A stretch of DNA of 64,000 nucleotides from Klebsiella phage vB_KaeM_KaOmega: the sequence record MN013077.1; one strand, given 5' to 3'. Positions 12,764-61,897 of this stretch are shown one piece after another. The position numbers were made by a program, and so were the translations under genes. The stretch's first letter is position 1. Each line of letters starts with the position of its first letter. The notes under the pieces were generated by a model. It had not been told where the DNA came from, made no database searches, and saw nothing but the letters and a program-made list of their open reading frames with translations.

Positions 12764-15400
12764 TCAGTGACAATCTCCCCAACTTGTTCCCGTCAGGTAT
12801 TCGCCTGTGATGTGGACTGGAGACTTCATCATCTTCGCAGCCTGTTCAACACATTTCACGACCATTTGTCCCACCGGGCAATGGATGATCGTATAAACAC
12901 CGTTCTCGTCTGGATCACACTTGAACTTACCTTCTTTCACACAGTGACCATCCAGAACCAGACCTTTCGCCAGGCACTGTTCAACAAAGGCTTTTGCCGT
13001 CGCCTCGTCGTTGAACTTCCATTCCTTTTTGAACTTGTGCGGCACCTCAAGCTGGTATTCATCGTGGTAGTAGATGATACGGCGGACGCCTTCATCATAC
13101 CAACCTCGTTTAACCAACTGCCAGTGCAACAGGATACCAACCAAGTCGAACAGGGCGGCACCGCCGTTCTGCTGGTATGCGTTCAGCAGGGAGTGTTTGG
13201 ATCGGGTGTAGATCTTACGACCATCAAGACCGTAGATAAACCGTTTCCCAGTCAACTCCCAGAACTTCTCAAGGGCTTCTTTACGACCTTTCAAGCCGAT
13301 GTTGCTATCCCAGAATGCGTCGATTACCGCCTGTGCTTTGTCGAGGGAAATACCCAACATAGAGGCGATCTTCGCCGCTTGGGCACCGTACATGATGCCA
13401 TATGTTACACCCTTACCTTCACCACGGGAAACCTTCTTGCCTGCTGCTTTGGTATACGCTTCAGCGTTTCGGCTGTGGGCATCCCCGGATTCCATGATGC
13501 GGAGATAAGCGCCCCCGTCGAACTCATAAGCACCCCATGCCGCGATCATACCTTCGAGGTTTGACCCGTCGATACCCACCTGATACTTCCCTTCCGACGC
13601 CTTGAACAGCGCTCGCATTTCCTTGCCCAGCAGAACCTTCTCGTCTGGTTTCGGAACGTTAGCCACGATCGTGTGCTTACGGCGTCCGGTGTTGGTAATA
13701 CCGGAATAACGCGCCGGGAGCTTCCCGTCAATACGCAGTCGTGGGTGGTTCAACCATCCCGTATCAACCTTGTCTTCCTTGAGCGGGTCAAGTACAGAAC
13801 GGCGGTTTCGCAGGGAGAGCCATTTCACGATCTGCTTCGCCATATGACCATCAACCTTCTCAAGGTTAGGGCACAGGCCGCTCATATCCTTCAACTGAGG
13901 AGATGTGGGCAGACCACGGGCTTTACGGCGGAGGAGTTTATACATCTTCTCCTTGTCCTGCCACGCCTTCAGAGTGATCCCGAGGTACTCCAAGATCAAA
14001 TCCCGGTACTCAACTTGGTCCAACTGCTCGATGTACTCACGCACAAGGCCGTCAACCTCGTTGTCAGGGCGCTGTTTCTTAAACTGGTCCTTGGTAACAT
14101 CTTTACTGCGCCACAGTGTAGGCTTCCACCCTGCATCGCGGATCAGGAACTTCTTCACGTCGTCCTGGTTACCGATTCGCATCGGGATCATGATGTCCGG
14201 CATAGTCTGATTCTTCAGGTCCAACATTGCTCGTGCCATGTCCTCTGGTGAGAGAGGGATCAGGGTCGTTTGCTTGTTGTTCTGGTCCCGGATAAACTGT
14301 GGCATCGCTGCCTCATCCTCGACACCATGCTCATTGCAATACTTGATTGCTGCCGCTGTCAGGCTACCATCGGCCTTGAACGACTTCGCCGGAGGCCCTT
14401 TGAAATCGAGGGCCTCCCAGTTGACGTTGTATCCCAACTTCTCAAGCCACTTCCACCCGGTCCCGGACAGGGAGCCGTCACCCTTGAAAGGTTTTGATGG
14501 GAACGTGGGCTGTGCCGACTTCGCCATCTCTTTCTTCGGGAGGTGTGGTTCAACGTCCCCCTCAATGTCACGCATCATTGTGTCGATACGATCACGGAGT
14601 TTCAGAGCCGCCTCTTCGTCGAATGTTACGCCTTGGATCTCCTGCTCGATCATCAGGTAGTCTGTGAGCATACCACGGCGCAGGCCATTCTTCCAGTTGA
14701 TCAGCTTGTACTTCTTGGCGTCCTTATCTTTATCTTCATCCTTGTACATGAAGCGTTTGTCATCCACCAACTTGCCGTCGCAGGCGATCTCCTCCATGAG
14801 GGCCGTCCACACCATTTCGTTGATGATAACGTCTTCGATGATACGATCGCAATACTTCCACAGCGGCAGGCCTCGCCAGTCTTCGATTGCCACTTTTTGG
14901 TTGGCAACACGCATACCCCAGGCTTCCAAGCCGTGGGGGCCGACAGGTTTCATCTTCCCGGTTACCGGGTTCTTTACCATCTCAGGACAGCCACGGGGTA
15001 GTGGTCGGTCCGGGTAAAGAGTTCGAGACATTGATAAAGTATCGAACAGGTTGACCTGTTTGCCGTTCAGGGTGCCCATGCACTTGGGATCACCGAACAT
15101 ATCATACTGCGTCCCCAGCATCTTTTTGAACAGACGTAGGTCGTAGCCGAACAGGTTGTGGATCGCAATTGAGCGAGGCTCAGTCTTGAACCAATCGTTC
15201 AACTCCTCAAAGGTGCGGATCTTGAAGTTCTTCCCTTTCGACTCGATGAACTTGATGGCCTGATCGTACCCTTCCCGGTTGGGATCGAGGAAGATATTCC
15301 AGTTATCGACCTTATACTCCTTGAACAGGATCACGTGAAGCTGGTCCACCTCATCGAGCAGACCGTTCGCTTCCGCATCCCCTACAAACAACCCTTTCAT
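12764..15400 (-). CDS. family A DNA polymerase (T7 gene 5 / Pol I-like) with 3'-5' exonuclease domain
   Basis: Pol A motif B RGEGKGVTYGIMYG and motif C YHDEYQLEV. N-terminal exonuclease-like region. ATG at 15400 with AAGGAGAGAG RBS (track start 15427 is GTG). Confidence 0.9.
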   Translation of the reverse strand: MKGLFVGDAEANGLLDEVDQLHVILFKEYKVDNWNIFLDPNREGYDQAIKFIESKGKNFKIRTFEELNDWFKTEPRSIAIHNLFGYDLRLFKKMLGTQYDMFGDPKCMGTLNGKQVNLFDTLSMSRTLYPDRPLPRGCPEMVKNPVTGKMKPVGPHGLEAWGMRVANQKVAIEDWRGLPLWKYCDRIIEDVIINEMVWTALMEEIACDGKLVDDKRFMYKDEDKDKDAKKYKLINWKNGLRRGMLTDYLMIEQEIQGVTFDEEAALKLRDRIDTMMRDIEGDVEPHLPKKEMAKSAQPTFPSKPFKGDGSLSGTGWKWLEKLGYNVNWEALDFKGPPAKSFKADGSLTAAAIKYCNEHGVEDEAAMPQFIRDQNNKQTTLIPLSPEDMARAMLDLKNQTMPDIMIPMRIGNQDDVKKFLIRDAGWKPTLWRSKDVTKDQFKKQRPDNEVDGLVREYIEQLDQVEYRDLILEYLGITLKAWQDKEKMYKLLRRKARGLPTSPQLKDMSGLCPNLEKVDGHMAKQIVKWLSLRNRRSVLDPLKEDKVDTGWLNHPRLRIDGKLPARYSGITNTGRRKHTIVANVPKPDEKVLLGKEMRALFKASEGKYQVGIDGSNLEGMIAAWGAYEFDGGAYLRIMESGDAHSRNAEAYTKAAGKKVSRGEGKGVTYGIMYGAQAAKIASMLGISLDKAQAVIDAFWDSNIGLKGRKEALEKFWELTGKRFIYGLDGRKIYTRSKHSLLNAYQQNGGAALFDLVGILLHWQLVKRGWYDEGVRRIIYYHDEYQLEVPHKFKKEWKFNDEATAKAFVEQCLAKGLVLDGHCVKEGKFKCDPDENGVYTIIHCPVGQMVVKCVEQAAKMMKSPVHITGEYLTGTSWGDCH

Positions 15401-25874: not shown

Positions 25875-26184
25875 CGAGTGTCCCCATCAGTTGATCTCGG
25901 GAATATACCCGACCTTCCTTCTTATCTTGTTCAGATAAACCCACCAGTTCCTTCAGGGCCGCAGCCTCGCGCTTTGACACGTCAATAGCGAAACAACCCT
26001 CGCCCCGGCGAAGCTCGTCGGAATCGGAACGGTACATGGACCCGGTTTTACCGGAGAAGAAAACGGATTTCTCCGTCATCTTCGTAATCACCGCCATTTC
26101 GAATGGCTTGGCCCCGGCGTTACCCCGGGAAAAGGCGATGTGGTCACCCACACGCGCCTCGATTCCGAAACAATCTTTGATCAA
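25867..26184 (-). CDS. hypothetical protein
   Basis: 105-aa ORF. Confidence 0.45.
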   Translation of the reverse strand: MIKDCFGIEARVGDHIAFSRGNAGAKPFEMAVITKMTEKSVFFSGKTGSMYRSDSDELRRGEGCFAIDVSKREAAALKELVGLSEQDKKEGRVYSRDQLMGTLDA

Positions 26185-27542
26185 ACTTCACCTCCAAAAA
26201 TCTCAGGGAACGTTTCATGATAGAACTTACGGACACCTTGGTCAACAATGATGTCCTTCACACGCAGGCGCTTCATCAGGCGAAGACCTTCGGTGCTCGT
26301 TGCTCGGGACAGCATAACATAGGCTTGACCCGGCGTGAAGGTGCCAAAGCCTAAATCAATGTTCACTTTGCCCAGCGTCAGGCCCTGTGCTTTGTGTCCG
26401 GTGATAGCATACCCCAGTTTGAATGGGAACTGCAAGTATTTCCCGATCTCTTTGTCAACCAGTACGGTTTGCTTCTCCATCACCTTGACAGTCTGCTTGG
26501 TGCCGTCTTCCAGTTCGATCTCTTTTTCAACCTGAACCATCTTTTCTTCCGGGACCTGTGTCACGTTGGTCCACTCGTACTTGCCGATATGGATCGGCTT
26601 GCCGTCAATGTCCACGATGACGAAGGTCTTGGCGATTTTCTTAATGATCCCCACCGTACCGTTAACGTAATCTGGCTCCTTTTTCTTCTGGTCATTGTCG
26701 TTAACAACAATCATGACCTTCAGACCTTCTTTCAGGTTCAGAACTTCGTTGACCGGGCGCTCCGGGAACTCACCTGAGATCTTGGCTTCGAAAACATGAG
26801 GCTCTGCCTTGATCTTCTCGAACTCACGCTGGTTGATTTGCTCTGCCAGTTTGTTGGTGGTTGTCAGAGTGACAGCGCCTGGCAACGCCGGGCCGAAGCA
26901 CTTCTCGTTGAAGTAATCAACTGCCGCACCAACATTATTACCCACACGAATGTTGTTCAGGTGTTCAGCAAACACCGGATCGGTCTGTCGGTGGACCTTC
27001 GGCAGATACGCATTGGTGAAATTCAGTTCGTTCCAGATGTCGCAGCCGAACGGGATTTCATTCCCGTGCAGTTCACGGAACATTGCCGTCTCTTCACGCT
27101 TCAGTACAGGCTTGATCTGGAAGCCGTCGCCAAACATGATGACTTGAAGACCACCAAAAGGCTTATTTACCTTACGATGATAGCGCAGTTTCATGTCGAT
27201 CTCACGCAGCTTGTCACTGCGGGTCATAGAGATCTCGTCAAAGACGATAGCATCTAACGCATCTGACGCCATCAGCATCGCAGGCTTCTTAGACTTCGCT
27301 TTGTAGTCTTCCTTGGTTGTAACACCAAAGGTAAGGCCAAATGCCTTGTGGGTGGTAATGCCGTTAATATTCAGCGCCGCAATCCCGGTTGGTGCAACAA
27401 ACAGGAAGCTGTCGGCAAAGAACTCACGCAGAGTGGCGATCATCAAACTCTTGCCCGAACCGCCCGGGCCTGTGATGAACACGTTTTCACCCGCCATGAT
27501 GGCTCGCATTGCTTCTTCGTTACCAATTACTGTCTTACCCAT
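26181..27542 (-). CDS. Dda/RecD-like SF1B DNA helicase
   Basis: Walker A GPGGSGKS and Walker B VFDEISM. SF1 motifs throughout the 453 aa. Confidence 0.85.
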   Translation of the reverse strand: MGKTVIGNEEAMRAIMAGENVFITGPGGSGKSLMIATLREFFADSFLFVAPTGIAALNINGITTHKAFGLTFGVTTKEDYKAKSKKPAMLMASDALDAIVFDEISMTRSDKLREIDMKLRYHRKVNKPFGGLQVIMFGDGFQIKPVLKREETAMFRELHGNEIPFGCDIWNELNFTNAYLPKVHRQTDPVFAEHLNNIRVGNNVGAAVDYFNEKCFGPALPGAVTLTTTNKLAEQINQREFEKIKAEPHVFEAKISGEFPERPVNEVLNLKEGLKVMIVVNDNDQKKKEPDYVNGTVGIIKKIAKTFVIVDIDGKPIHIGKYEWTNVTQVPEEKMVQVEKEIELEDGTKQTVKVMEKQTVLVDKEIGKYLQFPFKLGYAITGHKAQGLTLGKVNIDLGFGTFTPGQAYVMLSRATSTEGLRLMKRLRVKDIIVDQGVRKFYHETFPEIFGGEV

Positions 27543-36372: not shown

Positions 36373-36401
36373 AATATACAGGGTCTCGATCGAGAAATCA
36401 A
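36373..36401 (-). promoter_or_regulatory. sigma70-like promoter for the leftward operon (TTGATT-17-TATATT)
   Basis: Minus-strand -35 TTGATT (plus-strand 36396-36401) and -10 TATATT (36373-36378) with a 17-nt spacer. The spacer contains the palindrome TCTCGATCGAGA. Confidence 0.5.
36384..36395. promoter_or_regulatory. perfect 12-bp palindrome TCTCGATCGAGA (candidate operator)
   Basis: Self-complementary. Lies inside the promoter spacer in the divergent control region. Degenerate copies at 47.7-47.9 kb. Confidence 0.5.
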
Positions 36402-36404
36402 TAC

Positions 36405-36433
36405 TTGAATCGTATTTTTGTTCATGCTACCTT
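36405..36433 (+). promoter_or_regulatory. candidate rightward promoter (TTGAAT-17-TACCTT)
   Basis: Weak -10. Positioned about 30 nt upstream of the HD-hydrolase gene. Confidence 0.3.
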
Positions 36434-36464
36434 ATTGTTCACTAAACATGAACAGGAGAGCACC

Positions 36465-37028
36465 ATGAACAAAGTCTTATCCCCGGCAGAGCAGCTTGCC
36501 ATGATGATCAAGCTGGCAGCAACCCACCATATGAAGCAATTCGATAAGGGTGGTCGCCCTTACGTCCTGCACGTCCTGAAGGTGATGCATTACCTTAAAG
36601 ACAAGGATGATGACGAACTCAACTGTATCGCGGTTGGTCACGATCTGATTGAAGACACCCCGGTTCAACAGTGCGATCTGGAACGCTTAGGTATCTCAGA
36701 TCGTGTTATCGACGGGATCACTCGATTGACCAAAATTCCGTTCCAGTCACATGATGAATACCTGAAGGACATTCTGAAGAGCCATGACGCCTGCCGTGTT
36801 AAACTCGCAGACCTGCGCCACAACACAGATATCCGCCGTCTGAAAGGTTTGCGTCAAAAAGACTTGCAGAGAATCCAAAAGTACCATAAAATGCACATGC
36901 AGATTAAGGACATGATTGCATGGTACGAAGACAACCATTTGAGCATGTTCTCTTTCCCGGGTGATTACTTTGATGCCCGCAACGAGCAGGTAAAATCAAT
37001 CATGGAGAAAGAATACGATGCGAATTAA
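36465..37028 (+). CDS. HD-domain (p)ppGpp hydrolase-like protein (SpoT/Mesh1-type)
   Basis: ATG at 36465 with AGGAGAG RBS. HD motifs HHMKQFDKGGRPYVLHVLKV, VGHDLIEDT and KLADLRHN match the RelA/SpoT hydrolase domain. Confidence 0.7.
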   Translation: MNKVLSPAEQLAMMIKLAATHHMKQFDKGGRPYVLHVLKVMHYLKDKDDDELNCIAVGHDLIEDTPVQQCDLERLGISDRVIDGITRLTKIPFQSHDEYLKDILKSHDACRVKLADLRHNTDIRRLKGLRQKDLQRIQKYHKMHMQIKDMIAWYEDNHLSMFSFPGDYFDARNEQVKSIMEKEYDAN

Positions 37029-46546: not shown

Positions 46547-47407
46547 ATGTCCTCATTTGATGCGGTTTTCTTACACGGTGTTGCTGACTATTCCAAGGGC
46601 ACCAGCCCAACACCCGAGATCCCGGACTGGAAAAATTTACAGCGCCGCCTAGCCGATGTGGAAAAGACTGCCAAGACTGAATGGCAGAACAACGATGCAA
46701 TAGCGTCAGACATTAGCGACATTGCCAGTGACTTTGATTTCGACTCTTCCCTTGAGGATTTCGTAATCAGGGCAAATGATAAGATAGACCATCTGCACCA
46801 AGGTATCCGCGATGCCAGCTATGATCTCAATACCAACTGGGACCCAGATGGGATGACACGTGATCAGATGGTGACTTTTGTCGAGAACCTTAAAGATCAC
46901 CTCCAAGAATACCTTCCAAACTCCCAGAAAATGAGGGAGGTTGCTATCGGTTGGTACGGCTACGAGGTGGCCCGATTTGTTCAGGAGTATCATCCACTGG
47001 GCCAAGCATGGCTCTGCTACACACATGACGACACATATATGGGTGATTTGCACGACTCCAAGCTGGGTGACCTTGCTATCAAGGCTTGTGCCAATGGAAT
47101 CCTGAGATTCACAACCCAATGGGTTCCTGGTTACCTGCACTTTACCAGTGACAATAGGATTGTCATGGGTGACAGGGAAGGTCAGGGCGGTCTCGTGATG
47201 AAGGTGGATGAGTTCAGGACATACTTCGAAGACTGGAGGCGACCAACAGAAGAGGAGATTGGCCTGTTTGATGTTCTCCACCCGGGGGCAAACTGGTCGG
47301 TATTCCGATACCTGCGTGACTACGAAGGGAAGAACTATATATCGAACAAAAAGATCATTACCACCATCCCAACAAACAGTTTGATTTCTGTGAGCACAGC
47401 CCTGTGA
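46547..47407 (+). CDS. hypothetical protein (last gene of the rightward operon)
   Basis: 286-aa ORF. Confidence 0.5.
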   Translation: MSSFDAVFLHGVADYSKGTSPTPEIPDWKNLQRRLADVEKTAKTEWQNNDAIASDISDIASDFDFDSSLEDFVIRANDKIDHLHQGIRDASYDLNTNWDPDGMTRDQMVTFVENLKDHLQEYLPNSQKMREVAIGWYGYEVARFVQEYHPLGQAWLCYTHDDTYMGDLHDSKLGDLAIKACANGILRFTTQWVPGYLHFTSDNRIVMGDREGQGGLVMKVDEFRTYFEDWRRPTEEEIGLFDVLHPGANWSVFRYLRDYEGKNYISNKKIITTIPTNSLISVSTAL

Positions 47408-47409
47408 TA

Positions 47410-48350
47410 TTTGTGAGCCAAGGACGGCTCAGATTTCAGATCGGTTTTCGATTTGATATTTGTACCTGATATTTGTGTAGATATTTGAAATCAGATTTCA
47501 ACTCGAAATTCAATTTGAGATTTTATTTGGTATGGCCCGGCGGGCCGGAACCCAGATCTGATTTCTTTTTCAGATTTACTGACCAATGTACCAAACTGAC
47601 TGACCTTTGGTCAATACCTATTGCATCATAAATGTTACATTAAGGGGCTTATGACTCGTTAATGACACATAAACGTTACATAGTGAGAGTTATCCTCTGT
47701 CAGAAAATTTGAGGGTCTCGATCGACTTTTCATTTTGCCGATCGTATTTTCTGTACAGCCCGGCTGTCCGGGGTCTCGATAGAAAAATCGGGGTCTCGAT
47801 CGGTTTTTCGATTTCCAGATCGTATTCTCGATACAGGTACAGGTCTCACGCCGGGGTCTCGATCGAAAGTTCAAAACCCAAAACGTATTCTCAAAATCTA
47901 TACAGAGGTGAAAATCGAAATGCAAATCGTTATCATTATCACGTCGCCCGGGTCGGAATGAGAATCGTTCTCATTTGCAAATGTAACTGATAATCATTCG
48001 CATTTAGGTTGTTGAATGAGAATCATTCTCATCTCCAGAATAGCGGGCAGGTCCGGTGATTGTCTCCGGGTCAATTCTCCCCGCTATGTGTATAATATAA
48101 CCCAGGCCCGGCCCGGTGGCAAGCGTCTTTACAGTTCTTTACAAAACTATTTTAGGCGAACTACCGGCGATCCACCTTCCGACCTGGCCCCGGTGCCCGG
48201 TACGTTAGCCCCGCCTTTTCGCCGTGGGGTGGCGTCTCCTCTCCTGTATGTGTACATTATGCACCAGGCCAGCCGGGCCGTCAATACCAAAATCAAAATA
48301 AATTTTTCTTGACCCACCAGGCCAGCCGGGCCACAATGCAGGCACACCAA
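47410..48350. repeat. non-coding repeat/regulatory region
   Basis: AT-rich iterons: GATATTTG x3 and CAGATTTC x4 (47440-47570). Four GGGTCTCGATCG(A) units each followed by CGTATTYTC..TACAG (47712-47900). Two AATGAGAA-N3-TTCTCATT palindromes (47957-47975, 48015-48032). CCAGGCCMGCCGGGCC x3. Confidence 0.6.
48308..48336 (+). promoter_or_regulatory. sigma70 promoter (TTGACC-17-CACAAT)
   Basis: First promoter of the early array; GC-rich spacer. Confidence 0.5.
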
Positions 48351-48367
48351 CAAAAGGAGATCGACCC

Positions 48368-48700
48368 ATGCAACAGACGAAATATTTTATTGAAGGAACA
48401 GCCGCCGCCCACGCCGGGCAGATCCGCGCCTGCCGCTACAATAAAGAAGAGAACCGCCGGGAATGGTTCGCCGGGTTCGATAGTGTGGATCGTGGCTATG
48501 CCGTGTTTAAGATCCTCCCTGGTCCCGGCGCTGTTAAGCTGGCTGACCTGGACCCCGTTTATATTGGTGGCGTTAAACAATGCCAAGATCGCGCCGTTAC
48601 CCTGCAACAGGCAGACCGCGCCGGGCGCTATGTCATTTATGATATGGCAACGGGCAAGCCGTACCAGGAAAGCACAAAATTAAATTACAAAAATATTTAA
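48368..48700 (+). CDS. early small protein
   Basis: 110 aa; AAAAGGAG RBS. Confidence 0.5.
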   Translation: MQQTKYFIEGTAAAHAGQIRACRYNKEENRREWFAGFDSVDRGYAVFKILPGPGAVKLADLDPVYIGGVKQCQDRAVTLQQADRAGRYVIYDMATGKPYQESTKLNYKNI

Positions 48701-51749: not shown

Positions 51750-52060
51750 TTACAGTTCTAACCTTGATCGGGTTAGCGGCGGCGGCGCTGTACTGCGTCG
51801 CCACTTACAAGGCGTCAGTTTGGCGGAAGGGTCAAAAAATGTACGGCTATTTTGAATATGAGTACAAAGGGGAGAAGGGATCAAGCCGGGACTATGGCGC
51901 GATGTTAGAGATCGATATGGTTGGCGCTATGAATTATCGCCAGGAGTTAGGCGCGGCGATCACTTATGAAGTTTATGATCCCTCAGAAGAGAAGATCGGG
52001 GAGATAATTGATCAACGTTACTATATGGAACAGCAACAAAACAAACGCCGGAGAAAATGA
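51746..52060 (+). CDS. early membrane-anchored protein
   Basis: 104 aa with an N-terminal TM helix. Confidence 0.45.
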   Translation: MITVLTLIGLAAAALYCVATYKASVWRKGQKMYGYFEYEYKGEKGSSRDYGAMLEIDMVGAMNYRQELGAAITYEVYDPSEEKIGEIIDQRYYMEQQQNKRRRK

Positions 52061-60169: not shown

Positions 60170-60370
60170 ATGACAACCGCCAACCGCCTGATCGATGTTC
60201 TGAATGATGCAAAGGCAAACCGTTTAGCCGTGGCAATCAAAGAAGAGGCAAACGGGCTGATCCTGGCAAGTGTTACCGATGGCTGTTACACTGAATCATT
60301 CCATGCTGATACACTGGAGTATCTCGCCCACAGATTAGAAATGATCGTTGACGATTGGCGGCTATTGTGA
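60170..60370 (+). CDS. last small protein of the rightward array
   Basis: 66-aa ORF. Confidence 0.45.
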   Translation: MTTANRLIDVLNDAKANRLAVAIKEEANGLILASVTDGCYTESFHADTLEYLAHRLEMIVDDWRLL

Positions 60371-60385
60371 TCCGACCAAACCAAA

Positions 60386-60414
60386 CAGGCCCGGCATAGT
60401 CCGGGCTTTTTAGT
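60386..60414 (+). terminator. rho-independent terminator
   Basis: GGCCCGG-cata-GTCCGGGC followed by TTTTTAGTG. Confidence 0.65.
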
Positions 60415-60666
60415 GCCTGCAATCCGGCCCGGTATTGGTCCGACTCCCCCAGCCTATAAGCCCTTATCATTTAACATTGTGGAAATCAACATCTAATTTT
60501 ATTCATAAAAACATGCATAATTGAATACAGGAGGCGCTAACCCACTAGCCAGGGTTGAGAGTAGCGGGCCGCATAGGGCCTTACAGCGCGTTTTAGCCCC
60601 TATTGACTTCTATCTGCAAACGTGTATCAGGCCACAACTGACTAAATCACCTTTTCTTTACATAAC

Positions 60667-60697
60667 TTGACACTATTTATTCATTTATCTGCATAAT
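60667..60697 (+). promoter_or_regulatory. candidate promoter (TTGACA-17-TGCATAAT) in the non-coding region
   Basis: No downstream ORF. Points toward the inverted-repeat-flanked element. Confidence 0.3.
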
Positions 60698-60762
60698 GCG
60701 AGAATGATTATCATTTACAATCAATAACTTAACTTTTTATTGACTTCTGACAAAACACGGTT

Positions 60763-60911
60763 TTACGTTCCCACGGATCAAGGGAGGGCGCGCCGGAGGC
60801 GCGACCAATAGAAAACAGGTAACGAACCCTCCCCCGTTGCTAGCTCGCAACGGTTTAGGCTTACGTTCCCACGGTCAAGGGATGACCGCTATCACCTGTT
60901 TTCTATTGGTC
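60763..60911. other. structured element: two 23-nt direct repeats plus an 18-bp perfect inverted repeat (GACCAATAGAAAACAGGT / ACCTGTTTTCTATTGGTC) enclosing about 73 nt with internal palindromes
   Basis: Direct repeats at 60763-60785 and 60861-60883. Inverted-repeat arms at 60803-60820 and 60894-60911. Internal GGGAGGG..CCCTCCC and CGTTGC..GCAACG pairings. Confidence 0.5.
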
Positions 60912-61149
60912 ATTTGTGATTGAAAATCACGTAAAGTCAAGTTTTATTTTACAAATGAGAGTTATTCTTATCTGCATAAAGATTGGTTTTATCTGCATAA
61001 ATACGTAAACAGGCGGACCCGGTACGGGCCGGAGGGCCTGAGAGGAGAGGGCCTTTATTGCTCACAAAACAGCCGAAAGCGTAGCTTTTGCCTGGCAAAA
61101 TTCACTCTTCGTGTCAAGCGAAAAATAATTTTTTTTCTTTTTTCGTAAA

Positions 61150-61295
61150 CGATAATGATTCTCATCCGAGAACCATTCTCAAAGGGCGAATGCGAGTCAT
61201 TCTCATTGGCATTCCACAACGTGAGTGAGACTCATTCTCATCTAGGCCACGGCTGGCGGGCCTCTCCACGTGTTGGGAATGATTATCATTATCCC
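61150..61295. repeat. cluster of TTCTCAT(T) half-sites and an AATGATTATCATT palindrome
   Basis: Four TTCTCAT half-sites between 61159 and 61241. Palindrome at 61278-61290. The same AATGATTATCATT also at 60705-60717. Confidence 0.5.
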
Positions 61296-61897
61296 GAGTG
61301 CGTATAAGGTGTATTATGTTAAATGGGGAAATGTTGGGGGAGGCACACCACAGCCCGGCTGTCAATAAGAGAAGTGTAAAGATGGGCAAGATGGTAGACA
61401 TTTTGTGACTTTGATCGCGTAAAGTTAGGGGCTACCGATCGGGATTCAAGATTGGGAGGGAGAGGCTAAGTAATTGATTATTAAGGATATTTGGGAAAAA
61501 TAACAGGTGCCCCTCCCCACCCCTGTTCGCCATGCCTGGCAGCTATATCCATACGCTGAGATATTTTTCTGGTTTCTGGGCAAGAAGGGCCACCCCTGAT
61601 CGCGTTCTAAAAATTTTGGCGGGAGGGTATTTTGACATAAAAAGAGGGTACACCCAACGGGAGCGCCTCTTCAGGCGTCCCTTGATATTTGGGCAATGTG
61701 GGAATACAGACGGGTACGTCTCTGTGGGAACAGGTATACCCGGCGGGAGAGGGCCTCCCGGACGGGGTATGGCGCTCGCAGAGTTATCAACAGGACAGAA
61801 CACACGTTCGCCTCTTCAGGCAGTGGGTTAGACTCAAGTGGGACTCTTTAGGCCCTGTCAGGTCTACCAGTGTGGGAAACAAAATCCCGGAGGGAAG

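Follow-up and report, generated by a model that had tools for sequence, protein, structure and literature searches.

A conserved, oriented two-box module shared by a divergent promoter region and a non-coding early control region in Certrevirus and related phages

A 64,000-nucleotide stretch of the genome of Klebsiella phage vB_KaeM_KaOmega (sequence record MN013077.1; hereafter, the window) was analysed around a short repeated sequence, GGGTCTCGATCG, which lies between two divergently transcribed gene blocks and recurs in a tandem array just upstream of the early genes. The window belongs to a Certrevirus, an rV5-like myovirus of the subfamily Vequintavirinae. The conserved unit was found to be an oriented module of ~39 bp (roughly 40), GGGTCTCGATCG-N18-CGTATTYTC, whose two conserved parts are referred to below as box 1 and box 2. 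From the alignments and scans described here, we conclude that the module is a real, strongly conserved, and previously undescribed cis-regulatory sequence.

The divergent region separates a leftward gene cluster, which runs from 36341 down to ~680 and encodes a family A DNA polymerase and PIF1 and DnaB-like helicases, from rightward genes that begin at 36465 (ATG), the first of which encodes an HD-domain SpoT-like hydrolase. The array lies in a ~960-bp segment (47408–48367) that contains no convincing gene. The small-gene early region comes next, with ~20 strong TTGAC(G/A)-17-CATAAT promoters between 48.7 and 59.5 kb. They agree with the early promoter published for Certrevirus, AAAA-N4-TGTTGAC-N17-TATAAT (PMC7344957). 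Like the module, that promoter is a repeated regulatory motif preceding rightward genes of the same phages, but its sequence and class differ from those of the two-box module. Around the module loci, the window is ~96% identical to Enterobacter phage vB_ExiM_F1M1E (F1M1E) and 79–88% identical to Cronobacter phages CR9, CR3, and PBES 02.

Exact copies of GGGTCTCGATCG are present at 36381, 47713, 47791, and 47854, and a copy with one mismatch is present at 47771; all five are on the plus strand. The sequence is among the few 12-mers found at least four times in the window, the remainder of which seem to be fragments of early promoters that are themselves repeated. In the four full copies (4/4), the gap between GGGTCTCGATCG and CGTATT is exactly 18 nt and the orientation is identical. 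A position-weight matrix was built from 22 distinct modules from 12 sources. In the underlying alignment, CTCGATC is invariant, GGGT and G are strong, as are a TTC ~8 nt beyond the three bases that complete a palindrome at the divergent locus and the CGTATT.T of box 2, while the palindrome-completing bases themselves carry only 0–0.8 bit. The box 1 core is also written below as CTCGATCG. The matrix was run over ~146 kb of this genome type, that is, the window and positions 1–50 kb and 100–150 kb of F1M1E. Full modules scored 50–57 bits, the truncated copy at 47771 scored 20.6 bits, and the next best site scored below zero; the best score in 30 shuffles was 9.9 bits. In the ~146 kb the module is confined to two loci, the divergent promoter region and the segment just upstream of the early region. 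Because the motif is restricted to two transcription-control regions, a common trans-acting factor is the natural reading. The motif common to the two loci is genuine, lies in non-coding DNA, and is strongly selected.

At the divergent locus, the module is interleaved with a predicted leftward promoter (P_L) and a predicted rightward promoter (P_R):

36373–36378, minus strand: −10 element of P_L, TATATT; replaced in relatives by TATAGT, TATAAT, or TATGAT, likewise with 17-nt spacing
36381–36392, plus strand: box 1 (GGGTCTCGATCG), wholly within the 17-nt P_L spacer; core CTCGATC invariant in 6/7 Certrevirus genomes
36384–36395, no strand assigned: perfect 12-bp palindrome TCTCGATCGAGA, made up of box 1 and a chance or weakly favoured extension, AGA
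36396–36401, minus strand: −35 element of P_L, TTGATT, inside the N18 linker; AAATCAA invariant in 7/7 genomes
36405–36410, plus strand: −35 element of P_R, TTGAAT, back to back with the P_L −35 element in the N18 linker; TTG invariant in 7/7 genomes
36411–36419, plus strand: box 2 (CGTATTTTT), the first nine bases of the 17-nt P_R spacer; absent in P7_Pc
36425–36433, plus strand: extended −10 element of P_R, TGc followed by TACCTT; TTGTTCATG.TA invariant in 7/7 genomes, P7_Pc included
36436–36454, plus strand: inverted repeat TGTTCA-N7-TGAACA, directly next to the Shine-Dalgarno sequence AGGAG in the first rightward gene's leader; kept in 6/7 genomes

The divergent regions of seven Certrevirus genomes were aligned. 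Invariant positions, P7_Pc included, comprise AAATCAA, a TTG located 3–4 nt rightward of it, TTGTTCATG.TA, the Shine-Dalgarno sequence, and the start codon; an inverted repeat, GTTCAC...CATGAAC, is also among the parts kept. The 18-nt linker of the module consists of 3 nt, the P_L −35 element, another 3 nt, and the P_R −35 element. P_L matches the σ70 consensus at 9 of 12 positions (TTGATT-17-TATATT), and its architecture is retained in all seven genomes despite differing left-hand genes. P_R has the form of an extended −10 promoter (TTGAAT-17-TGcTACCTT) with key parts invariant in all seven; it was missing from the list produced by a consensus scanner because its −10 element scores 3/6. In six of the seven genomes, P_L (TTGATT-17-TATAnT) carries the motif in its spacer, and P7_Pc keeps the promoter without the motif. 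Since P7_Pc has both promoters and neither box, the boxes at the divergent locus appear to be regulatory additions rather than core promoter parts. Since the module is interleaved with both promoters, any protein bound to it would have to contend with RNA polymerase at each of them, or remodel it. The locus does not resemble an operator of the MerR type, for which a dyad in an over-long spacer of 19–20 bp is expected, as every genome compared has a 17-nt spacer. Alternatively, the TATTTT of box 2 (36413–36418) may itself be a −10 element here. The inverted repeat in the leader of the HD-hydrolase gene, possibly a hairpin of the transcript or else another operator, is accompanied by an outer GTTCATG/CATGAAC pair (36420–36454).

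A preliminary description of this DNA had drawn attention to the palindrome, placing it in the spacer of a promoter for a 36-kb replication operon and regarding the array copies as its degenerate repeats. The palindrome, preceded by GGG, is indeed located in the 17-nt spacer of the minus-strand TTGATT/TATATT site, and it is the sole exact copy of TCTCGATCGAGA in the window. Perfect 12-bp palindromes are not rare there (five observed versus 15.6 expected). The two half-sites are conserved unequally: the left half carries 1–2 bits per position, and the right half (AGA) 0–0.8 bit. At the divergent locus of DU_PP_I the palindrome is broken (TCTCGATCAACA), POP17 and CB7 have TACTCGATCGA(T/C)A in its place, and the GGG is lost in CR3. 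In the window itself, the symmetry of three of the four full copies extends no further than CGATCG or TCGATCGA. Palindromes 10–12 bp long, of the CTCGATCGAG type, reappear in unrelated modules (module C of CR3 and DU_PP_I, module 3 of PVP-SE1), and so a mild preference for A/G after box 1 is possible. By these comparisons, it is not symmetry that is conserved, nor does the palindrome make up the functional unit, which is asymmetric, has two parts, and occurs in a single orientation. The core does recur four times in the array (47713, 47771, 47791, and 47854), as had been stated, though the copies are hardly degenerate: three are exact, and the fourth, at 47771, has one mismatch and is truncated. 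CGTATT(T/C)TC follows three of the four, being absent from the 47771 copy because the latter is cut short by the next copy. The exact 18-nt spacing between the 12-mer and CGTATT, and the position of box 2 inside the spacer of a conserved rightward promoter, had been overlooked. Nor is a single promoter driving the 36-kb cluster supported, because ~17 further minus-strand σ70-like sites (≥10/12) are located inside the leftward cluster, several of them outscoring P_L (9/12).

The array and its immediate surroundings are organised as follows:

47713–47751, plus strand: module A, GGGTCTCGATCG-N18-CGTATTTTC, 52.3 bits
47771–47782, plus strand: truncated copy A′ (GGGTCTCGATAG) without box 2, 20.6 bits; relatives have GGGTCTCGGTACAG
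47791–47829, plus strand: module B, GGGTCTCGATCG-N18-CGTATTCTC, with a conserved tail GATACAGGTACAGGTCTC, 56.6 bits
47854–47892, plus strand: module C, GGGTCTCGATCG-N18-CGTATTCTC, then AAAATCTATACAG, 50.5 bits
47919–48033, no strand assigned: cluster of Fur-box-like palindromes (AATGAGAATCGTTCTCATT at 47957, ACTGATAATCATTCGCATT at 47986, AATGAGAATCATTCTCATC at 48015), directly 3′ of the array and outside the module
48035–48260, no strand assigned: near-invariant GC-rich non-coding element with a core at 48140–48240; the array always precedes it

The three-module array was present in every Certrevirus examined (CR3, CR9, DU_PP_I, phiTE, CB7, P7_Pc, and F1M1E), with module C being the only one that keeps box 2 in phiTE and CB7. 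Two Seunavirus genomes, PVP-SE1 and 4MG, have three copies of GTACTCGATC(G/A)-N18-CGTATTTTTTC, and in Vequintavirus rV5 the array takes the form GTACTCGATCT-N18-(T/C)G(A/G)ATTTTC. Six IMG/VR contigs outside the set from which the matrix was built gave exactly three module hits each; a scan of IMG/VR with a 14-base pattern was too unspecific and was not used. The array is always located upstream of the Fur-box-like cluster and the near-invariant non-coding element. The divergent-promoter copy is found in Certrevirus only; it is absent from P7_Pc, where the array is intact, and from Seunavirus 4MG, which carries an ordinary TTGATT-17-TATGCT promoter at the place of the Certrevirus module. On this distribution, the array is the ancestral, subfamily-wide location of the module, and the palindromic divergent copy is an optional Certrevirus addition, which reverses the view of the array as a set of echoes of the palindrome.

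The conservation of the array stands out against that of its neighbours. The 286-aa protein encoded upstream of it (gene 46547–47407) is 46–55% identical between CR9 or phiTE and the window (46% for CR9), and the non-coding region by the array is 77–89% identical at the DNA level in the same comparisons (~89% for CR9). The non-coding DNA is therefore the constrained part, and the usual pattern of coding and non-coding conservation is inverted here. In public records, short hypothetical proteins are annotated over modules (14814–14909 and 26047–26544 in F1M1E; 1034–1461, gp202 and gp203, in PVP-SE1). The hypothetical proteins annotated over the divergent module and the array are very probably spurious calls on regulatory DNA. 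Motifs of the CTCGATCG type and the non-coding region of rV5-like phages were not found described in the literature. The two-box module is not mentioned in the CB7 paper (PMC7344957) or the rV5 paper (PMC3606486); the latter marks a box labelled non-coding and reports no promoters at one divergent junction.

Fur-box-like palindromes (AATGAGAATCATTCTCATT type, with up to three mismatches) number 12 in the window versus 0.05 expected, and three sites match the E. coli Fur consensus GATAATGATAATCATTATC with up to three mismatches versus 0.01 expected. Besides the cluster downstream of the array, Fur-box-like sites are located at 52056, 58700, 60700, and 61148–61293. The non-coding element that follows the cluster is nearly invariant over ~100 nt across Vequintavirinae and Stephanstirmvirinae, and more than 400 phage records match it. 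Conserved leftward σ70-like promoters in or near it (48122–48094 and 48284–48256) suggest that it may be transcribed leftward, towards the array. A hairpin in the element shows one compensatory change, from G-C to A-T, and variation in loop length. The element (48035–48260) could be a new phage non-coding RNA or act at the DNA level. The window gave no Rfam match at gathering thresholds, with chance-level hits only in 47300–48500. A host origin for 47900–48270 was considered and dropped, as no match to this segment was found in E. coli genomes. A relationship to the pseudo-ToxI locus of phiTE was likewise set aside: although the homologous position in phiTE is occupied by a large non-coding gap, the escape locus described in the literature maps to 106.7 kb, in another part of that genome.

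Several other features of the region were recorded. The upstream part of the untranslated segment (47408–47700) is also highly conserved and contains three copies of GATATTTG, TCAGATTTC-type repeats in a stretch of 74% A+T, a GC hairpin (47531–47550), and two GTTACAT(T/A)A..G..TTATG repeats. The early promoters and the segment 48094–48337 have unusual GC-rich, partly palindromic spacers (CCAGGCCAGCCGGGCC, GGCCCCATAAT). AGGCCCCATAAT occurs eight times in the window; the published early-promoter consensus consists of the hexamers and an UP element only. A second untranslated region of ~1.1 kb (60370–61530) is located after a strong terminator (60390–60412) and contains three copies of TTATCTGCATAA, several Fur-like boxes, and GC-rich hairpins.

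Our preferred, still tentative, reading is that the module is a binding site for a putative factor that would control rightward initiation and, where the promoters diverge, switch from one to the other. A sequence-specific factor of phage or host origin would read the two boxes. In the array, the three tandem modules would act as factor-dependent rightward promoters, with box 2 supplying a −10 element of the TAnnnT type (TATTYT). Box 1 would then lie from −44 to −33, a usual position for activators that stand in for a missing −35 element, and the transcripts would run on through the Fur-box cluster and the invariant non-coding element into the early genes. At the divergent locus, the simplest outcome would be shut-off of P_L and altered rightward initiation, by which this locus would be coupled to the state of the early control region. 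Binding by a protein, the sign of the regulation, and the role of box 2 as a −10 element are what we infer from sequence. Part of what the preliminary description had proposed, an operator coordinating the two regions, is retained in this scheme, namely a shared non-coding motif at two control regions and a site whose occupation would affect the promoters around it; its symmetry and the single 36-kb operon are not.

The proposal of a factor that governs rightward initiation draws on the fixed geometry and orientation of the module, its restriction to two loci, and its deep conservation despite flanking proteins at 46% identity. Across genera, the A (−11) and the final T (−7) of the presumed −10 hexamer in box 2 are unchanged, while its first base varies (T, A, or G). 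A CA dinucleotide, an expected start, follows 7 nt downstream of the hexamer in modules A and B. No plus-strand σ70 site scoring above 9/12 was found between the upstream gene and the Fur-like cluster. In Stephanstirmvirinae phages KP13-16 and FBKp34, TTGACA-17-CATAAT and TGGACA-17-CATAAT promoters precede the homologous Fur-like cluster and invariant element, and no module is present there. Given consensus promoters at the equivalent place and no alternative, rightward transcription seems to be wanted at this point, and the modules are the sole candidates for it in Vequintavirinae. Leftward promoters in the array were also considered and rejected, as the −10 positions do not fit.

Promoters in which an upstream box at a fixed distance replaces the −35 element are well known, the MotA-dependent middle promoters of T4 and the pho-box promoters activated by PhoB being examples. 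Like the array modules, they combine a −10 element of the TAnnnT type with a conserved upstream box. The MotA box (TGCTTtA), however, is centred at −30, 11–13 nt from the −10 element, while box 1 would occupy −44 to −33 and ends 20 nt from TATTYT. MotA-dependent promoters are not what is seen here, as no TGCTTnA was found at either locus, and no MotA or AsiA homologue was detected with Pfam. Neither locus contains a MotA box or sites for IHF or LexA, and there is a single match to the DnaA box, at 48087.

A number of observations weigh against factor-dependent initiation at the modules. No sigma or helix-turn-helix domain was detected with Pfam in 150 open reading frames of the window, and no factor that binds the module was identified. 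Both divergent promoters are retained in P7_Pc although it lacks the boxes, and box 2 at the divergent locus is located in a spacer, not at −10. Modules A and B of phiTE and CB7 keep box 1 and have lost box 2, one IMG/VR contig has TATTCG in module C, and part of module C aligns with a promoter of FBKp34 in a register that makes TATACA, not TATTCT, the −10 element. Finally, four copies per genome are few for a promoter class.

Candidates for the factor were sought among neighbouring genes. The genes flanking the loci have no DNA-binding annotation in Pfam or PHROGs (in PHROGs the neighbours are of unknown function), and no DNA-binding gene was recognised beside the site, where the regulator of a dyad operator might be expected. 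The product of the first leftward gene (68 aa) was rejected, since CR3 carries the site but not this gene. Small open reading frames after the HD gene gave no hit. Gp104 of 4MG, a weak winged-helix protein encoded beside the HD gene, has no homologue in the window. The 286-aa upstream protein is not a cross-genus factor because it is restricted to Certrevirus and fast-evolving. A GATC is present inside every box 1 in all three genera, and this phage type encodes an N6-adenine methyltransferase, so that methylation-sensitive binding is possible. Clustering of Dam sites at the array was not supported: GATC is no denser there than elsewhere.

A possible, though doubtful, alternative is that the module is purely a bipartite operator. 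A repressor of phage or host origin bound to both boxes would shut both divergent promoters, and the triple array would be a high-avidity cluster that blocks or tunes transcription crossing the control region either way, its modules having no promoter activity of their own. The position of box 1 in the P_L spacer and of box 2 in the P_R spacer fits this, as do the architecturally intact promoters of P7_Pc, which lack the boxes, and the fact that the array modules have no σ70 −35 element in the P_R register. The array also has extra TCTCGAT-like sites at intervals of 20, 32, and 31 nt, and the conserved leftward promoters at 48094–48122 and 48256–48284 fire towards it. In function, the divergent locus resembles the immI region of P22, where the Arc operator is located between the −35 and −10 elements of Pant and overlaps the divergent Pmnt promoter. 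There, too, the site lies in a promoter spacer within overlapping divergent promoters, and one binding event affects both directions; however, Arc has one operator of 21 bp, partly symmetric and adjacent to the repressor gene, while here an asymmetric two-box sequence is combined with a distant triple array. A pure operator would not require the strict single orientation or the −10-like invariants of box 2, and there is no promoter within the array to repress. It also has no repressor gene next to it, the 68-aa first leftward gene being missing in CR3 despite the presence of the site.

A symmetric operator, as originally proposed, in which the palindrome binds a dimeric repressor or activator and the array consists of weaker, half-matching copies, is unlikely. 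An exact palindrome in a promoter spacer and the CTCGATCGAG-type palindromes in module C of CR3 and DU_PP_I and in module 3 of PVP-SE1 would be in keeping with it. Yet the right half is essentially unconserved, DU_PP_I has a broken palindrome, conservation is lopsided in favour of GGG and the left half, all copies point the same way, the three array copies are ancestral and better conserved, and 12-bp palindromes are not unusual in the window.

We consider it very unlikely that the modules are iterons of a replication origin situated in an AT-rich, promoter-rich non-coding region, with the palindromic copy serving as an autoregulatory operator. In iteron plasmids such as F (RepE) and pSC101 (RepA), direct repeats at the origin are accompanied by an inverted-repeat operator at the rep promoter, and the layout here is similar: direct repeats in the ~960-bp non-coding region beside a stretch of 74% A+T (47450–47500), and a palindromic variant in the promoter heading the DNA polymerase and helicase cluster. 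Both loci also coincide with turns in the cumulative GC skew; these turns are explained by gene orientation. Unlike iterons, however, the modules are ~40 bp long, and their spacing (58–78 bp) is unphased and varies between genera. The palindromic copy is optional, being absent in P7_Pc and Seunavirus, and only one DnaA-box match, rather than a cluster, was found, with no initiator gene recognised.

An RNA-level element or a short coding repeat (open reading frame 47709–47990) can hardly account for the module: in most Certrevirus genomes one plus-strand frame runs through the array without a stop, with module spacings of 78 and 63 nt that are multiples of three, and G-U-rich pairing of copies A′ and B was picked up as terminator-like, but the frame has only a TTG start and no ribosome-binding site, its invariant blocks show no third-position wobble in three genera, the spacings in PVP-SE1 and rV5 (67 and 65 nt) break it, the divergent copy is located upstream of both predicted transcription starts, between divergent genes, and no Rfam family matches.

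A broader reading was also considered, which we regard as an outside chance. The modules, the Fur-box-like cluster, and the near-invariant 100–230-nt element might together form one ancient ~1-kb non-coding control centre of rV5-like and phi92-like phages, part of which, the palindrome cluster, would also be present in the injection-stop region of T5-like phages; the modules would then dock a host or virion-delivered factor that gates the first events after genome entry. Repeat Region 3 of T5, the injection-stop region in the left terminal repeat, is a large and highly conserved untranslated region with dense direct repeats and palindromes (bioRxiv 10.1101/866236). The published analysis of T5 lists palindromes and repeats and does not mention Fur (bioRxiv 10.1101/866236). 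BLAST links positions 47957–48032 of the window to the T5-like region, and the shared part is the Fur-box-like palindromes, not the CTCGATCG module. In place of the module, the palindromes of T5-like phages are accompanied by GTCGGATTTGCACA repeats (five), DnaA boxes, and a LexA box without mismatch, and the module matrix scores nothing there. If such a control centre did exist, the gate could be, for example, staged DNA entry or an iron/Fur-sensitive launch of the early programme, and recruitment of the divergent copy would have placed the replication and HD-hydrolase operons under the same gate.

Phages of the rV5-like group (Vequintavirinae) are widely used in phage therapy and biocontrol, and published analyses of them list only σ70-like and putative late promoters. 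The module, with four copies, a fixed geometry, and conservation in three genera, is more sharply defined than any other regulatory sequence of these phages, and P7_Pc provides a natural knock-out of one of its copies. The ~1-kb untranslated region, which is not known to have been analysed before, is conserved far better than the neighbouring proteins and may be a more novel object than the module itself. The module offers a precise bait for the regulator and an equally precise target for work on the switching between the early, replication, and non-coding RNA programmes of these phages.

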